Shown: positions 29,397-54,922 of the stretch, piece after piece
How positions within the stretch are numbered: the first letter of the stretch is position 1
Layout of the letters: each line of letters begins with the position of its first letter
Assembly: GCA_023130975.1 (NCBI GenBank)
Contig: JAGMAD010000006.1
Span: 87,187 to 151,186 of the forward strand
Direction: 5' to 3'
Length of the DNA stretch: 64,000 nt
Source: Candidatus Parcubacteria bacterium
Lineage (GTDB): Bacteria; Patescibacteriota; Minisyncoccia; Minisyncoccales; JAGMDC01
Program-made: the position numbers and the translations under genes
The notes under the pieces: generated by a model
What the model saw: the letters and a program-made list of their open reading frames with translations, nothing else
Databases searched by the model: none
What the model was told of the DNA's origin: nothing

Positions 29397-30311
29397 TTAT
29401 GGCAGCCGCTCTGTCAAGCTGTAAAAATTATATTCTTTCAACATTTCAACAATCTTTTCTTTCCTCTTCGGCTCAAGGGAAGGCGGTTTCCATTGGCACT
29501 TTTCTAAATTAAAATCTATATCAGCGTCCATACGCGCTTTTGCCAAGTCATAAGATAAAAACACCTGGTCTTTGTAGTCCAGCAAAATCTCTTTAACCTT
29601 CGGCTTCAAATCCCAAGCCTCTCCTTTTTCTATGGCTTTATAAAGCTCGGTAATACTGCCGTATTCTTGAAGCAGTTCAGCCGCTCTCTTCTTACCAATG
29701 CCAGTGGCGCCCGGAATATTGTCAGAAGGATCGCCGGCCAAGGCCTTAAAATCAACTACCTGTTTTGGCAAAATCCCGAACCGCTCTTTTACTTTTTCCT
29801 CATCATAAATAACTGTTTCTTTTATACCCTTGCCCAAGGCATAAACCTTGACATTTTTATTCACCAGTTGGAGAGCATCTAAATCACCTGTAAGAATATA
29901 AATCTCAATCTCTGGCCCCCCACCACTTTTAGGATAAAAGTGGTGGGGGGTTTGGGCTATTTTAGCAATAGTAGCAATCAAATCATCTGCCTCAAATTCT
30001 TGTTTTTCAAAAAGGGGAATATTAAAACTTTTTAAAATTTCCTTTATTTTAGGAATTTGGGCATAAAGTTCTTCTGGCGCCTTTGGTCTCTTTGCCTTGT
30101 AGCCAGTAAACATTTTTTGCCGAAAGCTTGGTGCCGGAAAATCAAAACAGGCAGCAATATAGTTTGGTTTTAAGTCCTTTAAGGTTTTTAAAAAAACTAA
30201 TAAAAAGCCATAGACCGCATTAACCAAGACACCTTTTTTTGTTGTTAATGGAGGCAAGGCATGATAAGCCCGATGAACTAAAGCATTACTGTCAATAATT
30301 ACCAATTTCAT
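29397..30311 (-). CDS. 5'-3' exonuclease (FEN / Pol I N-terminal-domain family)
   Basis: Starts MKLVIIDSNALVHRAYHAL and contains ..EADDLIATIAK..ILTGDLDALQLV..GIGKKRAAELL. The ATG at 30311 is preferred over the TTG at 30320. Confidence 0.85.
   Translation of the reverse strand: MKLVIIDSNALVHRAYHALPPLTTKKGVLVNAVYGFLLVFLKTLKDLKPNYIAACFDFPAPSFRQKMFTGYKAKRPKAPEELYAQIPKIKEILKSFNIPLFEKQEFEADDLIATIAKIAQTPHHFYPKSGGGPEIEIYILTGDLDALQLVNKNVKVYALGKGIKETVIYDEEKVKERFGILPKQVVDFKALAGDPSDNIPGATGIGKKRAAELLQEYGSITELYKAIEKGEAWDLKPKVKEILLDYKDQVFLSYDLAKARMDADIDFNLEKCQWKPPSLEPKRKEKIVEMLKEYNFYSLTERLP
29916..29950. repeat. GC-rich palindromic element (family 2) inserted in-frame in the exonuclease gene
   Basis: Sequence is CCCCCCACCACTTTT-aggat-AAAAGTGGTGGGGGG. 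The arms are identical to those of the hairpin at 45551-45585. It encodes ..TPHHFYPKSGGGP... Confidence 0.85.
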
Positions 30312-30323
30312 AATCACCAATGA

Positions 30324-36972: not shown

Positions 36973-37014
36973 ATTGAAAATTCATTGATAATTGGTCATT
37001 GAAAATTGAAAATT
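36973..37014. repeat. Six heptamers ending in ATT (ATTGAAA ATTCATT GATAATT GGTCATT GAAAATT GAAAATT)
   Basis: Read directly from the sequence. The tract runs up to the stop codon of the 2162-aa gene. Confidence 0.8.
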
Positions 37015-40000
37015 TATTCTTCCGGGGGTGGTCCTTCAGCTGGTGGTTCTTCAGGTGGAACATAGGTTCCGAGTGCTTCTTGCTCTTCTGTTGGTTTTTC
37101 GTCGTCAATCCCGCAATCGCTCAAATCAGTGCAAGTCCGGGTTTGGGTAAAGGGCTCTTCGCTGGCAACTGTTTCTGGCAAAGGCGACCATTCGATGCAG
37201 AACCAATCAGGGATACAGACAGGCGGCTCCGGCTCAGGTTCAGGTTCCGGTTCAACACCATCTTCTGGCGACGTGGTTGTGTCAACTGGAGGAATATCTA
37301 AGATATCTGGAACATCTGGTGGGACATTTGGTTCGCTCCCTTCGGGAGCGGCTGGCTCAGGCGACTGACCATCAGTCACCAATAATTGATCATTGATCTC
37401 TGGACAAGGGCCTTGTTCCTTAACCCATTCGCCGTTTTCAATCCAGGTACACCAGATTTCGCCAGTGGTTTTATCCTGCATCTCAATTTGTTCAGCCACT
37501 ACTGTTTTTGCCTTTAATTTTTGGACTTCTAAAGTGCCGTATTCACTGACAATTAAGCCGAGAGGAAAGAGATTATTGATAATTGATAATTGGTCATCAT
37601 TGAGAATATTACCCTCCTCGTCAGTGATAACTGCCAAGTCATAACCCTGCCAGCTGACATTAACCAGGGTCATTACCTTGCCGATTTCGCTTTCCATTTC
37701 TACGCAATTTTTAACTTTTATATCGCTTCTCCCTTGTTCTTCGTTTTTAATAAAGCTGATTTCACAATTAGTTACTGTGCCGTCAAACGGCTCAAATGCC
37801 CGGCCAATAATTCTGCCAGCGCCAGTGGCTTTCATTGCCACGCCTGGCGACGAAGAAGAAGTCAGGAAATCGCCGATTTCAACAGGCCCATTTTCCAGAT
37901 TAACTTTGACCGGCACTCGACCGATTAAAGAAACCGGTCGGGTTTTAGCTATAACCTCGCCTGCATCAGTGCTAATTTCGCCATAGCCGCCGCCCAGAGT
38001 AGTGGATGGCTGGCTGGCAATCACTCCCACTAAATTAGAATCGTAAGCCGAAGCAGATTTTTCAACAAAGTATTTTGACTCATCAGTGATTTCTTCAATG
38101 GCATTGGTTTTGAGAATAGAAACAACATCGCCTGGCTCAACTGACAGGTCAAAAGTATAATAACTTTCAGCAATATCAGCGCCGCTGTCAGCATGAGTAA
38201 TTTCCAGCCAATTACTACCGTCATAAACAAGCACAGCAGTATCTTGAGTGTTATCCAAAGTAAGATGGCCGCTTAACTGAAGATTTCCAGTAGCGTCTTT
38301 CAAGACCACGCTCCGGTCAGTATGTTCTGCCCGAAGCACTAAAATATCGCCTTCGCTTCCGCCATTGATAGTATCTAAATCATCAGTAGCACCATCGCTT
38401 TCAGTGTCAATCTTATGGTAGGTCTGGGTTGCTGTAACCACCCCTGAAGCAATAGTTAATTCTGTAGCACCAGCGAAGTTTGCCATAGCAATCTCGGAGA
38501 TATCTCCGCCCGTGGCATTAGAGGAAGGCAGAGTACCATTAGTAGTATCGCTGCAGTCATCAGCATAATGGGTGGTCGGCGCAACAATGGCAATGCCGTC
38601 AGCCACGGCTGACGCGGTTTCGCCAGCTGACATAGAAGAAACTCTTCGGTAAAGTTTATAAGAAGTGGCGCCAGGAACCGCACTCCAGGTAACAGTGACT
38701 TTTTCGTCGTCACTATCGCCTGACATTGCCTGGGAGCCCTCTGCGGAAATAGTGGTCTCGCCATTGTCATTTAAAGCAGTGACCCGGTAATAATATGTGC
38801 CGCTACTGGAGCAGGAACCGCCGCTGGCAGTGATGCTGGTAGCAGGCGTGCCGGTCTGGGAAATATCCAGTTTGTTAATAGTAATATTGCCGCCAGTTAA
38901 AGTTAAATTCTGCTTAACTGTTAAGTCGCTGCCGCCGCTTCCAGTGCCGCCAACAGCCACATCGCCGTCAGGTCCGACCATAAACGCGTAGCCGCCGCCA
39001 TCCATACCCAAGACCTTAAACCCGCCGTAGACCAAATCGCTATGCTGAACATTCACCAGAACATCACCGCCTTTGGCATAAGCTAAGTGATAAATAGAGT
39101 TGGCTGCCGGGTCGCCCAAAGTAGCATCCCAGTCAGCCACAGTAATTGTATTATTTGCATTGTCAGTAATTGTTTGGGTCTGGCCCTTGCCAGTTCCGGC
39201 AATAATGGAAATACTGCCGTTAATCCATTCGTCAGCGGTCCAGGATTTATTACTGTCAGTTAAAACAGGATCAGAGAAAGAAGTACATATCCCGGAATCA
39301 CCAGTTGCTTCATTGGAACGGGTAGTCAGGGTTAAGTTTTCTGGATGATTGGGATCGCCGGCAGAAATAGTCAAATTCCCCTGGGAAGTAATATATGATG
39401 TGCCTGTACTTAAGAAAGCCAGGTCATAGTCAATGCCGACATCACCGCCGACATCAACACTCAATGGCCTGCTAAGCACAATATTCGGGTTGCCGATTTC
39501 AATCATTGTTGTCAGGGAACCGCCTGAAGCTGTTTTGAAAAGCATCTTGCCCGTGTAATTTGTATTGTCAATGTTGGTAATAGCTGATTCAATTGCGCCA
39601 ATTATTGTGGCGCCGCCAGTTGTTCTGTTGACAACCATATTTATTTTTGTTCCAGAAGCAACAGTGGCAGTGCCTAAATTTTCTATCCGCAAACCAGCTG
39701 TCACTGCGCCAGCAGAATCAGTTCGAACTGTTAACTTATCAGTCGGCGCCGTTGTACCAATCCCGACATCACCGGCAACAACAATCAAGCCGTAATTAGT
39801 AGTGGCACCGCTGGCAGAAAAGTAGCCAGCAATGTTGGTAGAAGTTGTGCCAGTGTTGGCAACTGAAGAATATAATCCATAAGTAGTATGAGAAGCATTG
39901 GTATTGGCGCCGGAGCGGGCAAGATTGAGAAGTTTTGAGGTCCCACTTGCTCCTCCGGCAGTAGAACTGGAAGTAATATCTAAACCAGTGCCTGTTGTCA

Positions 40001-43000
40001 AACCATCAACTGAAAGAGCTATTCCAGTGCCAGTGGTAATTGAATCACCAGTTAATTCAAGAAGCCCTGTAGTATCATTGGAAACAACATCAAGTTTGTA
40101 ATCTGGGCTGGTGGTGCCGATGCCCAGGTTGCCGCCAAAATAGGCGTCTCCGCTGCCGGAGATGTTGCCGGCGCTGAATAAACCCCCAGAACCGATATTA
40201 ACCCCACCGCTAATCTGGAGTTGGCCCTGAGCGATAATGTCATTTCTTACCTGCAGATTTCCTGCCTCTAAGCTGTGCACCACTCCTGATGTAGCCTCTA
40301 TTCCTGAGACATCGATTACCTTAAGGTCATCGCTGTCCACATCAACCACATAGGCATATCTACCTGAGACATAGACAGAGTAAGGGCCAGTGCCAATGGC
40401 TAAACTCCCGGCTAAGCTGGGTGAAGTCGGGTCTGAGACATCGATTACCTTAAGGTCATCGCTGCCAAGATCAACCACATAGGCATATCTGCCCGAGACA
40501 TAAACAGAGCGAGGCAGAGTGCCAATACCTAAGCTCCCGGCTAAGCTGGGTGAAGTGGGGTCTGAGACATCGATTACCTTAAGGTCATCGCTGTCAGAAT
40601 CAACCACATAGGCATATCTGCCTGAGACATAAACAGAGTAAGGGTCAGTGCCAATGGCTAAACTCCCGGCTAAGCTGGGTGAAGTCGGGTCTGAGACATC
40701 GATTACCTTAAGGTCATCGCTGATAGAATCAACCACATAAGCATATCTGCCTGAGACATAGACAGATATAGGGGCAAGGCCAATGCCCAAACTCCCGGCT
40801 AAGCTGGGTGAAGTCGGGTCTGAGACATCGATTACCTTAAGGTCATCGCTGACAGCATCAACCACATAGGCATATCTGCCCGAGACATAAACAGAGCGAG
40901 GCAGAGTGCCAATACCTAAACTCCCGGCTAAGCTGGGTGAAGTCGGGTCTGAGACATCGATTACCTTAAGGTCATAGCTGATAGAATCAACCACATAAGC
41001 ATATCTGCCTGAGACATAGACAGAGTAAGGGTAACTGCCAATGCCCAAACTCCCGGCTAAGCTGGGTGAAGTGGGGTCTGAGACATCGATTACCTTAAGA
41101 TCATTGCTGCTAATATCAACCACATAGGCATATCTGCCCGAGACATAGATAGAATAAGGGCCAGTGCCAATGCCCAAACTCCCGGCTAAAACAGGGTCTG
41201 CGGGTAATTGAAGGAAATTGCCTTTCTCAATAGTCAATTTCTCACTTGGGCTGGTGGTGCCGATGCCGACATTAGCATTAAGTATGTTAATCTCATCTGT
41301 TGCTTGATTGTCAAACTCTATTCTTCCAGCGCTTCCACCCAATCCAATCCAGGCATCATCTGGCATAACAATATTTCCGCTTGATGATATTGACAATGCT
41401 CCAGCTGTTATAGTTCCAGTTGTTGTTAAATTCTCATCGTCAAAAGATATGTCGCCGCCAGTGGCAGTAAAAGTTAAATCACCGCTGCTGTCCACTGCCA
41501 CAGAAAGATAATTAGAAGCGTCATAGGCGACAGTGAGTTGAGGAGTGCTTGTTGAAGTGATTGTTGTTTGGCCGCCATTAGCAATAACAAAGTTGTCTGT
41601 GCCATCGGTTTGGAAACGAGCAATATTGCCTGTACCTTGCTGATCTACCCGCAAGCCGTCTGATGAAGAAGTTGCTGTAAAAACAGCAGAGCCGGAATAG
41701 GTCTGGGCGCCGCTAACAGTAAGGTCGCCGCCGACAGTAACATTACCGTCTGTTTCAACTGTAAAGTTAGTGTCGCCAACAGTTAGGTCAGCACCAGTAA
41801 CATCCAAGCCAGCAGTAGCATCAACATTTCCGCCAAGTGTAATCTGGCCTGTTGATTGAGTCAAAGTATTATTGATGGTCACTGGTCCGCTAAAAGTAGA
41901 AGTGGCAGCCACGGTTAATTTATCAGAAGTTTCTCCGCCTAAGACAGTATCGTCGCCAACTCCTAAATCATGAACAGCAGCAGAACCAGAAACGCCTAAG
42001 GAAGCAAAAGTGCCATGTCCGCCAACCTGAACTCCTTGCGAACCAATATATATTGGAGCGCTGGAAACAACTGTTTGAGGAGGAGTGGCTTGAAGTTTTT
42101 TAGTAATTTTTTGGAGGGTTTCTATATCAGCTTCCCAACCAGTGATTTCAGCTAATTGGGTTTTGAATTCAGCCAATGATTCCTCGTCAAGAACTTTTAA
42201 TTCTTTAGTGATTTCTTTGATGGGTTCTATTTGGGTAATTTTTTGAATCTCTTTGATAATTTCTTTTTGAGGCAGACCTTCTCTTTCCATTTTTTCAATC
42301 CTTGCCTGAAGGATTTCTAATTCTTGTTTTAACTCCTCATCTATTTTTTCTTTTTCAGCAACGATTTTCTTTTCTGTCCTCCCCCCCCAAGGAGAAACGA
42401 GAAACTCGTATGCTTTAACAAACGGACTTTTGATTGCCTGATATGTCTGGCTTAATTTTTGTTCTATCGCATCATTGGTATTTTGATATCCTTGTTTGAA
42501 AGTAATGCCTGTCTTGACTATTTTCTGGCCAATGTTTGACGGTGCTTCTTTTATTATTTTACCTACAACAACGGCCTGTTCTCCATACCATTGGCTAAAT
42601 CTTTGAAAAACATTAATGCCGTATTTGAGGTCGTCGCCTGTCTCGCCAGTTACCTCGGCTAAAAAGGAGTAAGTACTCTTACTTGTTGACAAAATACTTG
42701 CTCCTAAATCATAAAAGTAATTTTTTGTTTCTGCCTTTAATTTGTCTGACTCTATTATTACTTTTTTCCTCCATTTATTTAATGATCTATTCATTTCTGC
42801 TAAAAATTGACTGAGAAATGTTTTTGAATTTGCTAAAGAGGTATCTATTACTGTTTTTGAGTTTATCACAGAACTGCCTATTATTGTTGTTAATTCATCC
42901 AAAACATTGTCAGCTTTTTGAGAGACAACCGATAGTCCTTTGGAGCTAATGCCGGCAACAAAACTCATTGTTTGTTTGAAATCCTGAACCGGATGCAAAT

Positions 43001-43502
43001 CAATTTCAGACAGGACTGCAGAGGTATTTTCAAAAGTTGCGGAGATACGATCTCTGCTGATTTTTACATCTTCTAAAGCACTGGAAGTAGCAGAGAACAG
43101 TTCTTTGCTGGTTTTTGTCAGAGTATCCTTGACCGACCAAATAGCATCTTTACCAATCCATTCAACAAGTTCAGGATTGTCCTGAACCTGCTGAAGGACA
43201 AAGACAATGCCAGTTGTAAGTAAAGAAAAAACCAAAACTCCAGCTATTGCGTATCGTAAAGCGTATCGGAGTTTTGGTTGCTTGAATAAGCTTGAAAACG
43301 ATATTCCTGCTTTTTTAACCTCTTTGTGTTTCTTTGAATTGCTCTTTAGGTATTCCTCCAGCCATTCTTTTTTAGTTACCCAGTTCCTGCCGAATTTAAT
43401 TGCCTTTAATTTTCCTTGTCTGGCCCTCAATGATAAATACTCCTGTGAGTAATCGCAGTATCGGGTTGCTTGTGTAAGAGAGATATAATCGTTTTCAGAC
43501 AT
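37014..43502 (-). CDS. Giant surface protein: N-terminal HTH, TM helix, coiled coil, beta-helix-like repeats, seven LVIVD repeats, FN3-like domain, Pro/Glu-rich tail
   Basis: 2162-aa ORF. Residues 5-55 (DYISLTQATRYCDYSQEYLSLRARQGKLKAIKFGRNWVTKKEWLEEYL) look like an excisionase/MerR-type HTH. The TM helix is at about aa 84-104 (43191-43253). The FN3-like segment is VTVTWSAVPGATSYKLYRR (about 38650-38700). The tail is EPEPEPEPEP. Confidence 0.6.
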   Translation of the reverse strand: MSENDYISLTQATRYCDYSQEYLSLRARQGKLKAIKFGRNWVTKKEWLEEYLKSNSKKHKEVKKAGISFSSLFKQPKLRYALRYAIAGVLVFSLLTTGIVFVLQQVQDNPELVEWIGKDAIWSVKDTLTKTSKELFSATSSALEDVKISRDRISATFENTSAVLSEIDLHPVQDFKQTMSFVAGISSKGLSVVSQKADNVLDELTTIIGSSVINSKTVIDTSLANSKTFLSQFLAEMNRSLNKWRKKVIIESDKLKAETKNYFYDLGASILSTSKSTYSFLAEVTGETGDDLKYGINVFQRFSQWYGEQAVVVGKIIKEAPSNIGQKIVKTGITFKQGYQNTNDAIEQKLSQTYQAIKSPFVKAYEFLVSPWGGRTEKKIVAEKEKIDEELKQELEILQARIEKMEREGLPQKEIIKEIQKITQIEPIKEITKELKVLDEESLAEFKTQLAEITGWEADIETLQKITKKLQATPPQTVVSSAPIYIGSQGVQVGGHGTFASLGVSGSAAVHDLGVGDDTVLGGETSDKLTVAATSTFSGPVTINNTLTQSTGQITLGGNVDATAGLDVTGADLTVGDTNFTVETDGNVTVGGDLTVSGAQTYSGSAVFTATSSSDGLRVDQQGTGNIARFQTDGTDNFVIANGGQTTITSTSTPQLTVAYDASNYLSVAVDSSGDLTFTATGGDISFDDENLTTTGTITAGALSISSSGNIVMPDDAWIGLGGSAGRIEFDNQATDEINILNANVGIGTTSPSEKLTIEKGNFLQLPADPVLAGSLGIGTGPYSIYVSGRYAYVVDISSNDLKVIDVSDPTSPSLAGSLGIGSYPYSVYVSGRYAYVVDSISYDLKVIDVSDPTSPSLAGSLGIGTLPRSVYVSGRYAYVVDAVSDDLKVIDVSDPTSPSLAGSLGIGLAPISVYVSGRYAYVVDSISDDLKVIDVSDPTSPSLAGSLAIGTDPYSVYVSGRYAYVVDSDSDDLKVIDVSDPTSPSLAGSLGIGTLPRSVYVSGRYAYVVDLGSDDLKVIDVSDPTSPSLAGSLAIGTGPYSVYVSGRYAYVVDVDSDDLKVIDVSGIEATSGVVHSLEAGNLQVRNDIIAQGQLQISGGVNIGSGGLFSAGNISGSGDAYFGGNLGIGTTSPDYKLDVVSNDTTGLLELTGDSITTGTGIALSVDGLTTGTGLDITSSSTAGGASGTSKLLNLARSGANTNASHTTYGLYSSVANTGTTSTNIAGYFSASGATTNYGLIVVAGDVGIGTTAPTDKLTVRTDSAGAVTAGLRIENLGTATVASGTKINMVVNRTTGGATIIGAIESAITNIDNTNYTGKMLFKTASGGSLTTMIEIGNPNIVLSRPLSVDVGGDVGIDYDLAFLSTGTSYITSQGNLTISAGDPNHPENLTLTTRSNEATGDSGICTSFSDPVLTDSNKSWTADEWINGSISIIAGTGKGQTQTITDNANNTITVADWDATLGDPAANSIYHLAYAKGGDVLVNVQHSDLVYGGFKVLGMDGGGYAFMVGPDGDVAVGGTGSGGSDLTVKQNLTLTGGNITINKLDISQTGTPATSITASGGSCSSSGTYYYRVTALNDNGETTISAEGSQAMSGDSDDEKVTVTWSAVPGATSYKLYRRVSSMSAGETASAVADGIAIVAPTTHYADDCSDTTNGTLPSSNATGGDISEIAMANFAGATELTIASGVVTATQTYHKIDTESDGATDDLDTINGGSEGDILVLRAEHTDRSVVLKDATGNLQLSGHLTLDNTQDTAVLVYDGSNWLEITHADSGADIAESYYTFDLSVEPGDVVSILKTNAIEEITDESKYFVEKSASAYDSNLVGVIASQPSTTLGGGYGEISTDAGEVIAKTRPVSLIGRVPVKVNLENGPVEIGDFLTSSSSPGVAMKATGAGRIIGRAFEPFDGTVTNCEISFIKNEEQGRSDIKVKNCVEMESEIGKVMTLVNVSWQGYDLAVITDEEGNILNDDQLSIINNLFPLGLIVSEYGTLEVQKLKAKTVVAEQIEMQDKTTGEIWCTWIENGEWVKEQGPCPEINDQLLVTDGQSPEPAAPEGSEPNVPPDVPDILDIPPVDTTTSPEDGVEPEPEPEPEPPVCIPDWFCIEWSPLPETVASEEPFTQTRTCTDLSDCGIDDEKPTEEQEALGTYVPPEEPPAEGPPPEE
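40304..41206 (-). repeat. Seven tandem 129-nt (43-aa) LVIVD-type repeats, probably a seven-bladed propeller
   Basis: CTGAGACATCGATTACCTTAAG recurs at 40304, 40433, 40562, 40691, 40820 and 40949, with a 2-mismatch variant (..AAGATC) at 41078. The unit is YAYVVDxxSxDLKVIDVSDPTSPSLAGSLGIGxxPxSVYVSGR. Confidence 0.9.
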
Positions 43503-45549: not shown

Positions 45550-45719
45550 ACCCCCCACCACTTTTGTTCCAAAAGTGGTGGGGGGAAAAATAGCCCAAGG
45601 CTGGGGGCAAAACTTCAGTTTAAAACCATAGTTCAGAATTTCTCTGAGGAATAATCCGGCACTACCTGGGTTATCCGTTAACTAAGGGAAATTCCTACGT
45701 CCCCAGCCTTGGGCTATCT
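45543..45719 (-). ncRNA. Candidate small structured RNA (about 175 nt), identity unknown
   Basis: It has its own TTGACA-16-TATAAT promoter. A 17-bp perfect closing helix (45590-45606 with 45701-45717) encloses about 94 nt containing short hairpins. It ends with U5, a 15-bp GC hairpin and UUUAUU. Confidence 0.5.
45551..45585 (-). terminator. GC-rich hairpin (family 2 palindrome), U-tract on the minus strand only
   Basis: Sequence is CCCCCCACCACTTTT-gttcc-AAAAGTGGTGGGGGG. The minus strand continues TTTATTCTCC and the plus strand continues AAAAATAG. Confidence 0.65.
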
Positions 45720-45725
45720 ACCTTA

Positions 45726-45753
45726 ATTATAATGGATATTATGAATTTGTCAA
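45726..45753 (-). promoter_or_regulatory. Consensus sigma70-type promoter pointing at the candidate sRNA
   Basis: The minus strand reads TTGACA (45753-45748), a 16-nt spacer, then TATAAT (45731-45726). Confidence 0.6.
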
Positions 45754-45799
45754 CCCCCACACCAAACGAACATAGCTCTGTTATGGTGTGGGGGTTGAC
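45749..45799. repeat. GC-rich palindromic element (family 1): GTCAACCCCCACACCA..TGGTGTGGGGGTTGAC
   Basis: 16-bp arms with a 19-nt spacer. It shares CCCCCACACCAAACGA(A/G)CAT with the element at 48296-48363. Confidence 0.85.
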
Positions 45800-46982
45800 C
45801 CTTTTGTTTTTGTTTGTTGGTTTTTTGTTTTTTGGAGTCGGTTTTAATACCGATTTTATTTTAGCTGATGAATCGTCTAAGGTAGTAATCAACGAAATTG
45901 CATGGATGGGCACAAAAGAGTCGTATAACAATGAGTGGATTGAATTATACAATAATAGTGAGACGTCTGTAAATCTTGACGGCTGGATATTAAAAACTAA
46001 TGACGGCAGTCCGGAAATTGAATTAACAGGCAGAATCTCGGCTAAAAGTTTTTATTTATTGGAAAGAACTGACGACGAAACAGTAGCTAGTATTTTAGCT
46101 GACCAAATCTATAAAGGAGGATTGGCTAACAAAGGCGAATATTTGAAGCTTTTTGATGAACAGGGAAATTTGATTGACGAAGTGGAATGTTCTGATGGTT
46201 GGTTTGCCGGAGACAATAAGACCAAACAAACAATGGAAAGGTCTGTTGAAGTCAAACTTCAACAACCTCATTGGCAGACAAGCCAAAATCCCGGGGGCAC
46301 ACCAAAAAAACAGAATAGTCAGCTAGCTGAGGAAGCGGTTGAGGTCAAGCCTAAACATCCTCAAGGAATTATTACCTATCCTGGTGGTATAGTTGTGAAC
46401 GAAGTACTCCCCTCTCCTGAAGGCCCTGATGCAGAAAATGAATGGATAGAAATTTTCAATGAAAATATCTTTGAGGTTGACATTTCTGGTTGGAAAATTT
46501 CTGACACAGTAGGCAGTGTTAAGAGTTATACTTTTTCCAAAGGAATAAAAATTTCCGGCAAAGGGTTTTTGCTTTTCAACAGGCCAGAAACAAAAATTAC
46601 TTTGAATAATAGCGGTGAAGGAATAAAAATTTTTAACCCTAATGGAGAAATCGCTGATGAGATAAATTTTGGAAAAGCGCTTTTGGGACAGTCGTATAAT
46701 AAGTTTGAGTCTCAATGGCAGTGGTCAGAAAATTTAACACCCGGCTCTGCGAACATCGCTTCTGAAATAAAAAAAGAAATTTCAGAAGACAGTGCCCCAG
46801 AGATTATAGAGAAGAATCTGGAGGAGAACAAAAATCCTCTCTTATTATCTTCGCTGTTAGGATCTCCGTTGTCAAAGAAGAACAAGAATCCTTTATTTAA
46901 ATTGTTAATGATTGCTTTATCTATTGCTGTTTGTTTTGGTTTTTTAATTTTATTTTTAAAAAAGAAATTGAAAACTGATTAA
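45783..46982 (+). CDS. Lamin-tail-domain (LTD) protein with two LTD modules and a C-terminal TM helix
   Basis: Contains VVINEIAWMG..NEWIELYN..LDGW and IVVNEVLPSP..NEWIEIFN..ISGW. The probable start is the ATG at 45783 (MVWGLTLLFLFVGF signal anchor), and the track start is 45732. Confidence 0.6.
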   Translation: MVWGLTLLFLFVGFLFFGVGFNTDFILADESSKVVINEIAWMGTKESYNNEWIELYNNSETSVNLDGWILKTNDGSPEIELTGRISAKSFYLLERTDDETVASILADQIYKGGLANKGEYLKLFDEQGNLIDEVECSDGWFAGDNKTKQTMERSVEVKLQQPHWQTSQNPGGTPKKQNSQLAEEAVEVKPKHPQGIITYPGGIVVNEVLPSPEGPDAENEWIEIFNENIFEVDISGWKISDTVGSVKSYTFSKGIKISGKGFLLFNRPETKITLNNSGEGIKIFNPNGEIADEINFGKALLGQSYNKFESQWQWSENLTPGSANIASEIKKEISEDSAPEIIEKNLEENKNPLLLSSLLGSPLSKKNKNPLFKLLMIALSIAVCFGFLILFLKKKLKTD

Positions 46983-53563: not shown

Positions 53564-54922
53564 TTAAACAGAATATATCCTGTGTTTTATTAAATTTACC
53601 TCTTCAAAAAGTCTTTCATTTTCTTTTATTTCTCTGGAGATTTTTTCAAAAGCATGGATAGCTGTAGTATGGTCTTTTCCGCCGAATTTCCTGCCAATAA
53701 AAGGAAAAGAGTAATTCAACGATTCTCTTAAAATATACATTGCTATTTGTCTAGGGAAAACGATTTCTTTTTTTCTTGAAGCAGCGATAAGATCTTTTTC
53801 TTTCAAATCGTAAAATTCAGCCACTGTTTGAATAATTTTTTTAGGACTAACCATTTTTGCCGGGCCAGAAATTATATTTTTTAAAAGTGTCTTAGCTATC
53901 TGACAATCAGGAATTTGATTATTTAGTTTTTGGTAGGCAATTAATCTGTTTAAGGCACCCTCTAATTCCCTAATATTTTCTTTAATATTGGAACTAATAT
54001 ATTCTAAAACATCATTGGAAAGATTTATTCCTTTTTCCTGAGATTTGACCTTTAAAATAGCCATTCTTGTTTCATAGTCAGGGAAACCAATATCAGCAAT
54101 CATTCCTCCTTCAAACCGGGAGCGCAACCGTTCTTCCAAACTGGAGATTGCTTTTGGCGGACGGTCTGAGGAAAGGATTATCTGCTTATTTTTTTCATAT
54201 AAGGCATTGAAAATATGGAAAAATTCCTCTTGGGTTTTTTCTTTGCCAGCTAAAAACTGAATATCATCAATAATTAAAACGTCAATTTTTCGGTGATTAT
54301 TTTTAAACTCCTCAATGCTGTGATTTTTAATTGAAGAGACGACGCCGGAAATAAATTTTTCAGATGTAATATACTTTGTTTTCTTGTCAGGAAAATTTTT
54401 AACCGTCTTATTGCCAATGGCTTGGATAAGATGGGTTTTGCCTAAACCTACTCCGCCGTAAATAAATAAAGGATTATAAATTGTGCCTGGATTTTTGGAA
54501 ATAGCCCAAGCCGCAGCATGGGGAAGTTCGTTAAAAGGCCCTACTACAAAGTTTTCAAACAAATAACGAGGGTTTAGATTAGAGATTTTATTAATCTTAA
54601 ATTCTTCAAATTGGAGCTGTTCTTCGTCTGGGTAGTGATCTGTAATTCGGGATCGCTCTTTCTTTACCTCCAGCCCGGTCCTGGGTACTTCATATTTTAT
54701 TTCTTTAACGTTTTCATTTAAACTGTGGGCAATTTTTAAAATAGTTTTATTGTATTTGTTTTCTAACCATTCTTTAGAAAAATGATTAGGGACTGAAATC
54801 ACGATTTTTCCTTCTTGTTTTAAAAGAATTTTAGTGTTTTTAAACCAGGTTGCAAAATTAGCTGGAGAGGTATTGAATTGGATTTGGGCAAGTATTGCTT
54901 GCCAGAGTTCTTCCTTAGTCAT
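53564..54922 (-). CDS. dnaA: Chromosomal replication initiator DnaA
   Basis: 452-aa ORF with Walker A GGVGLGKTHL, an AAA+ core and the C-terminal DNA-binding helix (..GGKDHTTAIHAFEKI..). Confidence 0.95.
   Translation of the reverse strand: MTKEELWQAILAQIQFNTSPANFATWFKNTKILLKQEGKIVISVPNHFSKEWLENKYNKTILKIAHSLNENVKEIKYEVPRTGLEVKKERSRITDHYPDEEQLQFEEFKINKISNLNPRYLFENFVVGPFNELPHAAAWAISKNPGTIYNPLFIYGGVGLGKTHLIQAIGNKTVKNFPDKKTKYITSEKFISGVVSSIKNHSIEEFKNNHRKIDVLIIDDIQFLAGKEKTQEEFFHIFNALYEKNKQIILSSDRPPKAISSLEERLRSRFEGGMIADIGFPDYETRMAILKVKSQEKGINLSNDVLEYISSNIKENIRELEGALNRLIAYQKLNNQIPDCQIAKTLLKNIISGPAKMVSPKKIIQTVAEFYDLKEKDLIAASRKKEIVFPRQIAMYILRESLNYSFPFIGRKFGGKDHTTAIHAFEKISREIKENERLFEEVNLIKHRIYSV

Follow-up and report, generated by a model that had tools for sequence, protein, structure and literature searches.

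What does a perfect, GC-rich palindrome do in frame inside an intact exonuclease gene, and how did it get there? The question is raised by the 64,000-nt stretch of a Candidatus Parcubacteria contig analysed here in its entirety (the window), in which the palindrome (copy 1) occupies positions 29916..29950. On the minus strand, in mRNA sense, it reads CCCCCCACCACTTTT-atcct-AAAAGTGGTGGGGGG, which corresponds to CCCCCCACCACTTTT-aggat-AAAAGTGGTGGGGGG on the window strand. A preliminary description of the locus had recognized a perfect 15-bp hairpin at this position; a repeat finder confirms it and lengthens the arms to 16 nt each, 100% complementary, so that the stem is in effect 16 bp long and the loop 3 nt. 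The folding energy of the RNA is -28.6 kcal/mol, and the GC content of the hairpin is 57%, compared with 38% for the exonuclease gene and 36.6% for the window. The hairpin is probably a solo copy of a mobile hairpin family that is associated with a GIY-YIG nuclease, and it would be translated as a tolerated loop rather than serve as a regulatory device.

The host gene (29397..30311, minus strand; the surrounding open reading frame (ORF) is 29397..30320) encodes a stand-alone 5'-3' exonuclease of the FEN/Pol I N-terminal type with PF02739 and PF01367 domains. Its product, 304 aa from MKL..., is 100% identical to NCBI KAU51_03120 of a Candidatus Parcubacteria metagenome-assembled genome (MAG). 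Since the catalytic acidic residues D10, D60, E110, D112, D113, D146, D148, D197 and D200 are all invariant in the orthologue alignment, the gene is considered intact. Together with one preceding A, the hairpin makes up 12 codons (ACC CCC CAC CAC TTT TAT CCT AAA AGT GGT GGG GGG; 29916..29951, minus strand) that encode TPHHFYPKSGGG, and the in-frame location that had been proposed is borne out by the intact ORF reading through them. These residues stand where close orthologues have a 5-residue loop (KEQVL or QKQIY). Indeed, most of the 26 orthologues aligned have five residues here (KEQVL, RKQVL, QKQIY) versus 12 in the window protein, an excess of 7, and the whole stretch from the EADD to the TGD motif is 11 residues longer than in Taq (1TAQ) and M. 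smegmatis Pol I (6VDE), in line with the linker about a dozen residues shorter that the preliminary description gave for E. coli Pol I. In the AlphaFold (AF2) model, which has a predicted local distance difference test (pLDDT) score of 91.4, the insert maps to a lower-confidence coil (residues 123–136, pLDDT ~71) between helix 111–122 and strand 137–144. The nearest relatives of the window gene, L197 and L002 (85–86% nucleotide identity) and L198, have no hairpin. As judged from the alignment of orthologues, the hairpin in the exonuclease gene is an insertion.

The same hairpin is found in the same loop of a second exonuclease lineage, namely, in the orthologue P0006 of a Minisyncoccales MAG (loci L001 and L051). 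The window and L001 genes are 74.7% identical in DNA overall and 53% identical at third codon positions, as against 35 of 36 bases in the hairpin. The codons adjoining the hairpin differ, and the 5' junctions are unlike, the K-I-A-Q codons being kept in the window gene and not in L001. L199, the sister of L001, is devoid of the hairpin. The unit shared by the two genes is, by these comparisons, the hairpin element and not the gene segment around it, and the simplest reading is that one mobile sequence would have been acquired twice in a permissive loop. The loop of L002 (10340–10365) and L199 carries an unrelated GC-rich insert with the palindrome GCCAGCTGGC, translated as EQFRQLAE or KQFLQLAE. 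An insert of this type is present in one member of each exonuclease sub-clade; either the loop is a recurrent landing site, or alleles have been exchanged between lineages.

That the same loop of the same enzyme bears the hairpin in two lineages, with no decay of the arms, could also mean that the hairpin is kept for a function in the exonuclease, be it a translational pause, an RNase III-type site in the mRNA or a useful 12-residue Gly/His-rich loop, and a stem of this stability in a 38% GC gene would indeed slow ribosomes. Yet the nearest orthologues in both lineages do without it, identical nucleotides occur in three frames of unrelated proteins and in non-coding RNAs (see below), and the loop tolerates the unrelated EQFRQLAE insert of L002 and L199 as well, as expected of a site that is simply permissive. 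We therefore regard a function in the exonuclease as very unlikely, and the inserted peptide is presumably neutral.

Copy 1 has relatives both inside and outside the window. Its 15-mer arm occurs four times in the window, as two perfect palindromes, and this recurrence is not due to chance. The sole twin (copy 2, 45551..45585) has identical 15-nt arms and the loop gttcc, just as the preliminary description stated; the 16th stem pair is altered on both sides (A-T in copy 1 versus G-C in copy 2). Copy density in the window, at two per 64 kb, is low for the DNA-uptake-sequence and Chi-like readings that were considered. Copy 2 starts 1 nt past the stop codon of a pilB-like gene. On the minus strand it adjoins a small RNA (sRNA) directly on the 3' side, and its score there is that of a terminator-like element (tail TTTATTCT). 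The bases after copy 1, within the coding sequence, are CCAGAG.

Scanning one genome per species with the pattern CCCACCACTTT-N5-11-AAAGTGGTGGG yielded 68 genome loci holding 71 copies, compared with ~4 loci estimated by chance, and 85 distinct copies were compiled in total, in coding as well as non-coding positions of many genomes. The full 6C/6G arms are present in 55 of them, 50 of these 55 having TTTT/AAAA, and bases outside the search pattern are likewise conserved among the compiled copies. The family form is (A)CCCCCCACCACTTTT-loop-AAAAGTGGTGGGGGG(T), 33–39 nt long, with a loop of 3 to 9 nt, most often 5 nt. The hosts are mostly Patescibacteria, spread over many classes (Saccharibacteria, Nealson-, Nomura-, Zambryski-, Gribaldo-, Wolfe-, Magasanik-, Portnoybacteria and Minisyncoccales), and full-length copies are also found in Omnitrophota, Leptospira and a Planctomycetia contig. 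Some genomes hold multiple copies (~11 in one Saccharibacteria MAG, 7 in AH-259-L07). Loop sequences cluster by genome or lineage: one Saccharibacteria MAG contains CGCAG or its complement five times, and the loops GTTCC, ATTCC, ATTCT and ATCCT are those of Parcubacteria-type genomes. Such clustering is expected for copying from local masters.

Copy 2 scoring as a terminator, and the chance-like look of some matches outside the Candidate Phyla Radiation (CPR) that have no full C6/G6 run (L020, L022, L036, L038, L069), might suggest that look-alike GC-rich terminator hairpins evolved independently, or that copy 1 is an assembly chimera. Four contigs and sources, however, have the identical exonuclease protein on record, the orthologue with the hairpin turned up independently in Logan (L001) and in an NCBI MAG (L051), and the reading frame is preserved. 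Furthermore, a T-tract after the stem is missing in most copies, and in a metagenome scan that left the middle five arm bases free, ACCAC/GTGGT dominated, with 21 of ~40 perfect hairpins among the matches listed; the rare variants among these listed matches are compensated on both arms (ACCGC/GCGGT, ACCTA/TAGGT, ACACC/GGTGT). An artefact or coincidence is effectively refuted by this census, and the probability left to it is minimal. As to the origin of the arms, a tRNA source was considered and set aside as a lead only, since none of the 51 tRNAs present in the retrieved loci matched; CCCCCACCAC is presumably the 3' end of E. coli tRNA-Tyr (..UUCCCCCACCACCA) and GGUGGGG its 5' end. The Rfam consensus for the RNase P P3 element is a C-run/G-run helix, as in the hairpin arms, and an origin from either tRNA or RNase P P3 is conceivable. 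No relevant description of the hairpin sequence or of palindromic elements in Patescibacteria was found in the searchable literature.

Copies are also found inside other genes; over the whole family, at least 12 lie within protein genes and 11 within RNA genes. Judged by open-frame analysis, Pfam and alignment to solved structures, in-frame copies are present in UvrA, a PurS-PurL fusion, FtsZ (in the C-terminal linker), TsaD, MnmA, MurB (two genomes, same site) and MiaA, as well as in one PEGA-domain and one SLT-domain protein. Ten host proteins are confirmed by Pfam, and solved homologues of the host proteins have a gap at the insert position. All three reading frames are used (PHHF..KSGGG, PTTF..KVVGG and PPPL..KWWG) and, therefore, the conserved unit is the nucleotide sequence and not the peptide. 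Moreover, since all six frames of the arms are free of stop codons, a copy is simply translated whenever the net length change is a multiple of three. Among RNA genes, Rfam matches place the hairpin in the RNase P RNA, where it replaces P3 (L033 and, by weaker matches, L058 and L062) or P16/17 (L059 and L006) or lies near the 3' end (L053), and within three group I introns (L008, L054, L061) and 23S rRNA (L010). With close orthologues that have no hairpin and copies in many genomes, the core idea of the preliminary description, namely, that a protein loop tolerates a mobile palindrome in frame, as in Rickettsia, was right and understated. In tsaD of L050 (3146–3218), an in-frame 27-nt inverted repeat, GTCATTCTGAGCGAAGCGAAGAATCCC / GGGACCCTTCGCTCTGCTCAGGGTGAC, is located directly before the hairpin and translated as HSERSEESR...LRSAQGD, the inserted loop amounting to ~35 residues in total; this repeat resembles the NTS consensus of the Ssn nucleases discussed below, yet it fails their SRM regular expression.

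A search for unpaired arms revealed what the preliminary description did not foresee. In L059 and L062 the arms stand ~260 nt apart and enclose one ORF, which encodes a single-domain GIY-YIG nuclease of 83–84 aa (PF01541, E 4e-20 over residues 1–71) starting with MFYVY(I/V)LKS...LYIG.T.DL..R..EH. Arms bracket a GIY-YIG gene of 83–86 aa in all five distinct cassettes that were read as DNA (L059, L062, L200, L210, L219), the homologues in L200, L210 and L219 having been picked only for their contig number, regardless of flanks. Two of these, P0265 (L200) and P0305 (L219), are located in RNase P RNA P3, and P0261 (L210) is in an intergenic spacer. The cassette arms, 15–19 nt long, are the same as the arms of the solo hairpins, of which at least 55 copies are found elsewhere. 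Furthermore, about a dozen of the 120 closest database relatives have extended termini that show arm-encoded peptides, with PHHF, PPPLF or PPTT directly before the MFYVY start and KVVGG or KSGGG-like residues after the C-terminus. Together, the cassettes and the encoded termini link the hairpin arms to the GIY-YIG gene at the level of sequence. A more distant single-domain GIY-YIG gene (L117, 535–840) lies between different arms, CCCCGTAGAGAAATTTCGAATT / AATTCGAAATTCTTCTACGGGG. Since this lineage has its own arms, arms and nuclease appear to travel as pairs, which suggests that several nuclease/arm pairs may coexist in CPR. The GIY-YIG gene is the only gene found bracketed by the arms, no genome-wide search having been aimed at Y1 (HUH) genes, and an NCBIfam search with the nuclease gave nothing above the cut-off. 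Three further observations concern these loci. In the RNase P RNA genes of L059, L200, L219 and L062, the arms form the P3 or P16/17 helix with the ~260-nt GIY-YIG ORF in the loop; the RNase P gene of L062, with three hairpin-type insertions, measures ~640 nt; and a solo CCCCCCACCAC hairpin lies ~30 nt upstream of the L117 gene.

Signs of mobility are present at the element boundaries. Direct repeats of 4–5 nt (TTTA, TCAA, TTGA, TTCT, TATA, TTGG, TAGAA) bound exactly CCCCCC...GGGGGG in 7 of the 55 full copies (13%), where 0.56 would be expected; none of 2000 re-pairings of the flanks reaches seven, and the signal vanishes when the boundaries are moved by 1–3 nt. The excess of short target-site duplications (TSDs) is therefore significant. 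Of the 55 copies, 29 have A and 19 have G at -1, and the flank preference of A at -1, T at +1 and A at +4 fits a duplicated target of the T-N-N-A-like type. Together with a 4-nt duplication, the 35-nt element amounts to 39 nt or 13 codons, which is exactly the form of the FtsZ copy (L037). Compound forms are found as well: in miaA (L013, 740–830) one hairpin is nested, in frame, in the loop of another; doubled arms (CCCCACCAC-CCCCACCACTTTT...) occur at three loci of one Saccharibacteria genome (L035, L056, L066); and a long form of 83 nt with a conserved 53-nt interior is present at two loci of a Minisyncoccales genome (L012, L075). L031 and L066 look like one site in simple and doubled form. 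The sRNA-adjacent site is polymorphic among relatives, with the simple form in the window, the 83-nt form in L075, an unrelated hairpin in L073 and none in L074 and L076.

The link between arms and nuclease could be read in the reverse direction: the hairpin, maintained by the host as a REP-like structural or regulatory palindrome or a stable helix module, would be primary, and the GIY-YIG gene would be a later invader homing into hairpin loops, in which case the hairpins would spread or arise otherwise, for example by recombination or slippage. Consistent with this, the ORF-bearing copies that were read are found mainly in RNase P RNA P3 (L059/L200, L219) and solo copies everywhere, the arms double as functional RNA helices and stay perfectly paired with rare variants compensated, and the doubled-arm and nested forms hint at slippage-type growth. 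By contrast, the TSD excess at the exact element boundaries points to insertion of the hairpin itself, and the different arms of the L117 lineage indicate that arms travel with the nuclease. In addition, no loop-specific function is apparent, as loop sequences vary freely and transcripts contain the hairpin in either orientation, and close relatives do without the hairpin at both window sites. On balance, the reverse direction seems unlikely.

A close parallel to a mobile GIY-YIG hairpin is provided by the Ssn proteins, single-domain GIY-YIG enzymes that are site-specific nucleases of single-stranded DNA (ssDNA) cutting next to hairpin repeats (Chenal et al. 2025, PMC11893778). The ssn genes are bounded by hairpin repeats (NTS/SRM) that are present in hundreds of copies, in an NTS-ssnA-NTS layout like that of an insertion sequence (IS) (PMC11893778). 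Like Ssn (~94 aa, within a size class of ~85–95 aa), the nuclease described here is a small single-domain enzyme (83–86 aa) with no DNA-binding domain, its gene is bracketed by a short hairpin-forming repeat with many dispersed solo copies, giving an IS-like look, and each nuclease lineage has its own repeat, as exemplified by the different arms of L117. Unlike ssn genes, which lie between two complete hairpins, the CPR gene lies within one hairpin, with a half-arm on each side. Moreover, whereas only 2% of NTS are intragenic, residence in frame in essential genes is common for the CPR hairpin, as is residence within RNase P RNA, rRNA and introns. Its hosts belong to the CPR, a group that PMC11893778 does not mention.

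For the GIY-YIG-associated family we envisage the following course of events. The two arms would be the terminal inverted repeats of a mini-cassette of ~290 nt that encodes one nuclease of 83–86 aa, and the solo hairpin would be an ORF-less copy belonging to a dispersed family of DNA palindromes, which would spread as DNA both within genomes and between distant lineages. The likely driver would be hairpin-directed action of the GIY-YIG nuclease, comparable to that proposed for repetitive extragenic palindromic (REP) sequences and their REP-associated tyrosine transposases (RAYT) and for the NTS/SRM hairpins and Ssn; we infer by this analogy that the nuclease mobilises the hairpin. Copies would persist only where they are harmless, i.e. 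in intergenic spacers, at the tips of RNA helices and in protein surface loops. The window copy would have landed downstream of the EADD helix and ahead of the TGD strand, where it took the place of the native loop of five residues and is read through as TPHHFYPKSGGG.

Several observations weigh against this scenario. No flanking duplication is seen in 41 of the 55 copies, neither exonuclease copy has a TSD, and both replace native codons instead of adding 35+4 nt, which makes any proposal for the chemistry of insertion tentative. The 64-kb window contains no GIY-YIG gene, and 2.9 million IMG/VR viral contigs contain no copy of the hairpin, so that no vector is known. The nearest solved relatives of the nuclease are the UPF0213 (cd10456) proteins 1ZG2 and 1YWL (E 1.7e-8), so that any membership in the Ssn group (cd10448 for SsnA) is putative, and the SRM motif HGTCWYN(0-2)YYVSBRHN(0-5)WNVSBRGN(0-2)RNCYNB has no match in the window hairpins, the whole window, the five cassettes or the L050 repeat. 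To our knowledge, GIY-YIG enzymes are hydrolytic nucleases with no strand-transfer activity. Finally, arms that are perfect and identical across phyla are hard to square with neutral selfish DNA and could mean a host-level function.

Other known repeats share some features with the CPR hairpin. Like the Rickettsia palindromic elements (RPEs; PMC10969869), it forms in-frame palindromes in unrelated housekeeping genes that are translated as extra surface peptides, in host-dependent bacteria with small, AT-rich genomes. It differs from RPEs, which are ~100–150 bp long, fall into ten families, are confined to Rickettsia and have a family-specific conserved peptide, in being 33–39 nt long with a different peptide in each frame, in having arms identical across several CPR classes and other phyla, in replacing helices of structured RNAs and in having a protein-coding parent form. 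REPs, including bacterial interspersed mosaic elements (BIMEs), and RAYT offer a parallel in 20–40-nt GC-rich palindromes with many copies and a cognate small nuclease/transposase gene that is repeat-flanked and thought to act on ssDNA hairpins. Unlike REPs, which have a GTAG or CGTC tag (PMC3733652), the CPR element ends (A)CCCCCC...GGGGGG(T) without a tag; furthermore, it is not extragenic, its enzyme is GIY-YIG and not HUH/Y1, and its arms are identical across phyla whereas REPs are species-specific. Resemblance to miniature transposable elements with inverted repeats (MITEs) lies in terminal inverted repeats common to a longer coding element, ORF-less derivatives, the significant excess of short TSDs and the intermediate 83-nt form. 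The CPR element is, however, far smaller than any described prokaryotic MITE, its inverted repeats abutting, TSDs occur in only 13% of the copies, and the parent has no known transposase. Fungal mitochondrial GC clusters, or double-hairpin elements, are likewise short GC-rich palindromes that invade an AT-rich genome, where they settle in intergenic DNA, variable regions of rRNA and introns and also, in frame, in genes for proteins; they differ in residing in organelle genomes, in having unrelated sequences and in having no known dedicated nuclease gene nested in the palindrome.

The preliminary description had further pointed to a perfect 12-nt complementarity next to both hairpins and to possible pairing between a candidate sRNA and the exonuclease mRNA. 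The sRNA (45586..45719, minus strand, ~134 nt) is, by comparative evidence, real and conserved: it is preceded by a sigma-70 consensus promoter (TTGACA-16 nt-TATAAT, 12/12 matches; 45726..45753, minus strand) that is placed for a start at ~45719 and is invariant in the five-genome alignment, and across five Parcubacteria genomes its fold has 53 conserved pairs, six with compensatory changes. It is invariably flanked by the pilB-like ATPase gene and the gene that follows, and a stretch of 186 nt, which takes in the copy 2 hairpin as well, folds with a z-score of -7.6. The closing stem, AUAGCCCAAGGCUGGGG / CCCCAGCCUUGGGCUAU, comprises 19–21 bp. Rfam searches of the region at gathering thresholds and at E<=10 gave spurious hairpin matches only, signal recognition particle RNA and 6S RNA not being supported. 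A second GC-rich hairpin, GTCAACCCCCACACCA-N19-TGGTGTGGGGGTTGAC (45749–45799), overlaps the -35 box of the sRNA and the first ~23 codons of the ORF 45732..46982, which encodes an LTD-domain protein. L073 retains part of this hairpin and L074, whose protein starts downstream, has none of it; it may be another inserted palindrome or part of a 5' untranslated region.

The complementarity itself exists, the 12-mer AAAATAGCCCAA being found beside both hairpin copies. At 29952..29963 (minus strand) it represents the native K-I-A-Q codons of the helix before the loop and lies outside the element; hairpin-less orthologues have AAA ATG GCT CAA (L197) or AAA GAA GCC CAA (L002) at this position. At 45587–45598 it is one arm of the sRNA stem, which is present in relatives that have no hairpin. 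If the sRNA regulated the exonuclease mRNA, the 12 nt UUGGGCUAUUUU would pair with AAAAUAGCCCAA to control translation or decay, and the reality of the sRNA, the perfect match directly beside both hairpins and the low estimated chance (~1e-5) of a 12-mer adjoining both copies speak for this. The energetics do not: the duplex contributes -15.2 kcal/mol, opening of the sRNA, in which the 12-mer is buried in the closing stem, costs +20.5 and opening of the mRNA +2.5, giving a net +7.7 kcal/mol. This calculation was used in place of whole-length duplex scoring, which forces full-length duplexes and is uninformative; by that score the whole molecules were matched or beaten by 14 of 200 shuffles and by 11 of 124 other window segments, i.e. 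the interaction suggested earlier is unremarkable on this measure too. Moreover, the Minisyncoccales genome with hairpins at both loci (L001/L075) has no such complementarity, each 12-mer is conserved for another reason (codons or sRNA stem), and the same 11-mer recurs at 54499 without a hairpin. Regulation of the exonuclease by the sRNA is therefore highly improbable. The fallback offered in the preliminary description, complementarity as a by-product of shared element ancestry, is not supported either: each 12-mer belongs to the native sequence of the host, and when the loops are given the same orientation the two lie on opposite sides of the hairpin.

Two other accounts of the 12-mer were tried and rejected. 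Copying from the sRNA locus to the exonuclease by template switching or ssDNA annealing via the 12-mer does not fit the geometry, the 12-mer lying on the opposite side of the hairpin. A role as part of the element or as a target-site signature is contradicted by other copies, which have no such flank; the flank preference across copies is weak, and the L015 flank AAAATAG/CTATTTT is an ordinary A/T-run extension of the stem. With no fitting recombination geometry found, the complementarity is unexplained and would be a coincidence or a microhomology effect. The third exact copy, of AAATAGCCCAA (54499–54509), has no hairpin near it; chance alone would give ~0.03 exact 11-mers in the window. Elsewhere in the window, palindromic 17–19-nt motifs (CATCGATTACCTTAAGG...) recur every ~129 nt at 40308–40980 inside the giant ORF 37014..43502 (minus strand), a spacing that points to tandem 43-residue repeats in the predicted protein.

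Both insertions carrying GIY-YIG ORFs and short insertions free of ORFs are known from CPR bacteria: the GIY-YIG ORFs of CPR rRNA genes sit in non-intron insertions (Tsurumaki et al. 2024, PMC11270868), and many short ORF-less insertions are unexplained (PMC11270868). With the dispersed hairpin there is a specific and testable source for some of the many inserted segments, so far unaccounted for, by which CPR proteins, rRNAs and RNase P RNA are extended. More tentatively, the hairpin with its nested 84-aa GIY-YIG gene might represent a new, ultra-compact class of mobile elements that would move by ssDNA hairpin recognition across CPR and neighbouring phyla, settling in essential protein genes, RNase P RNA, rRNA and introns, and whose solo hairpins could also be ssDNA cleavage tags policing natural transformation in obligately competent, DNA-scavenging bacteria; we put this forward as a possibility that is more doubtful than the mobile family itself. 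For annotation, spotting PHHF..KSGGG, PTTF..KVVGG and PPPL..KWWG avoids misreading such loops as lineage-specific functional innovations. The 15-nt arm and the ~84-aa enzyme define a candidate nuclease-hairpin pair with a possible new ssDNA-cutting specificity. Overall, the findings carry the pairing of a GIY-YIG ssDNA nuclease with a hairpin repeat into a huge uncultured radiation, where the gene-inside-hairpin architecture and the routine in-frame residence in essential genes are new.

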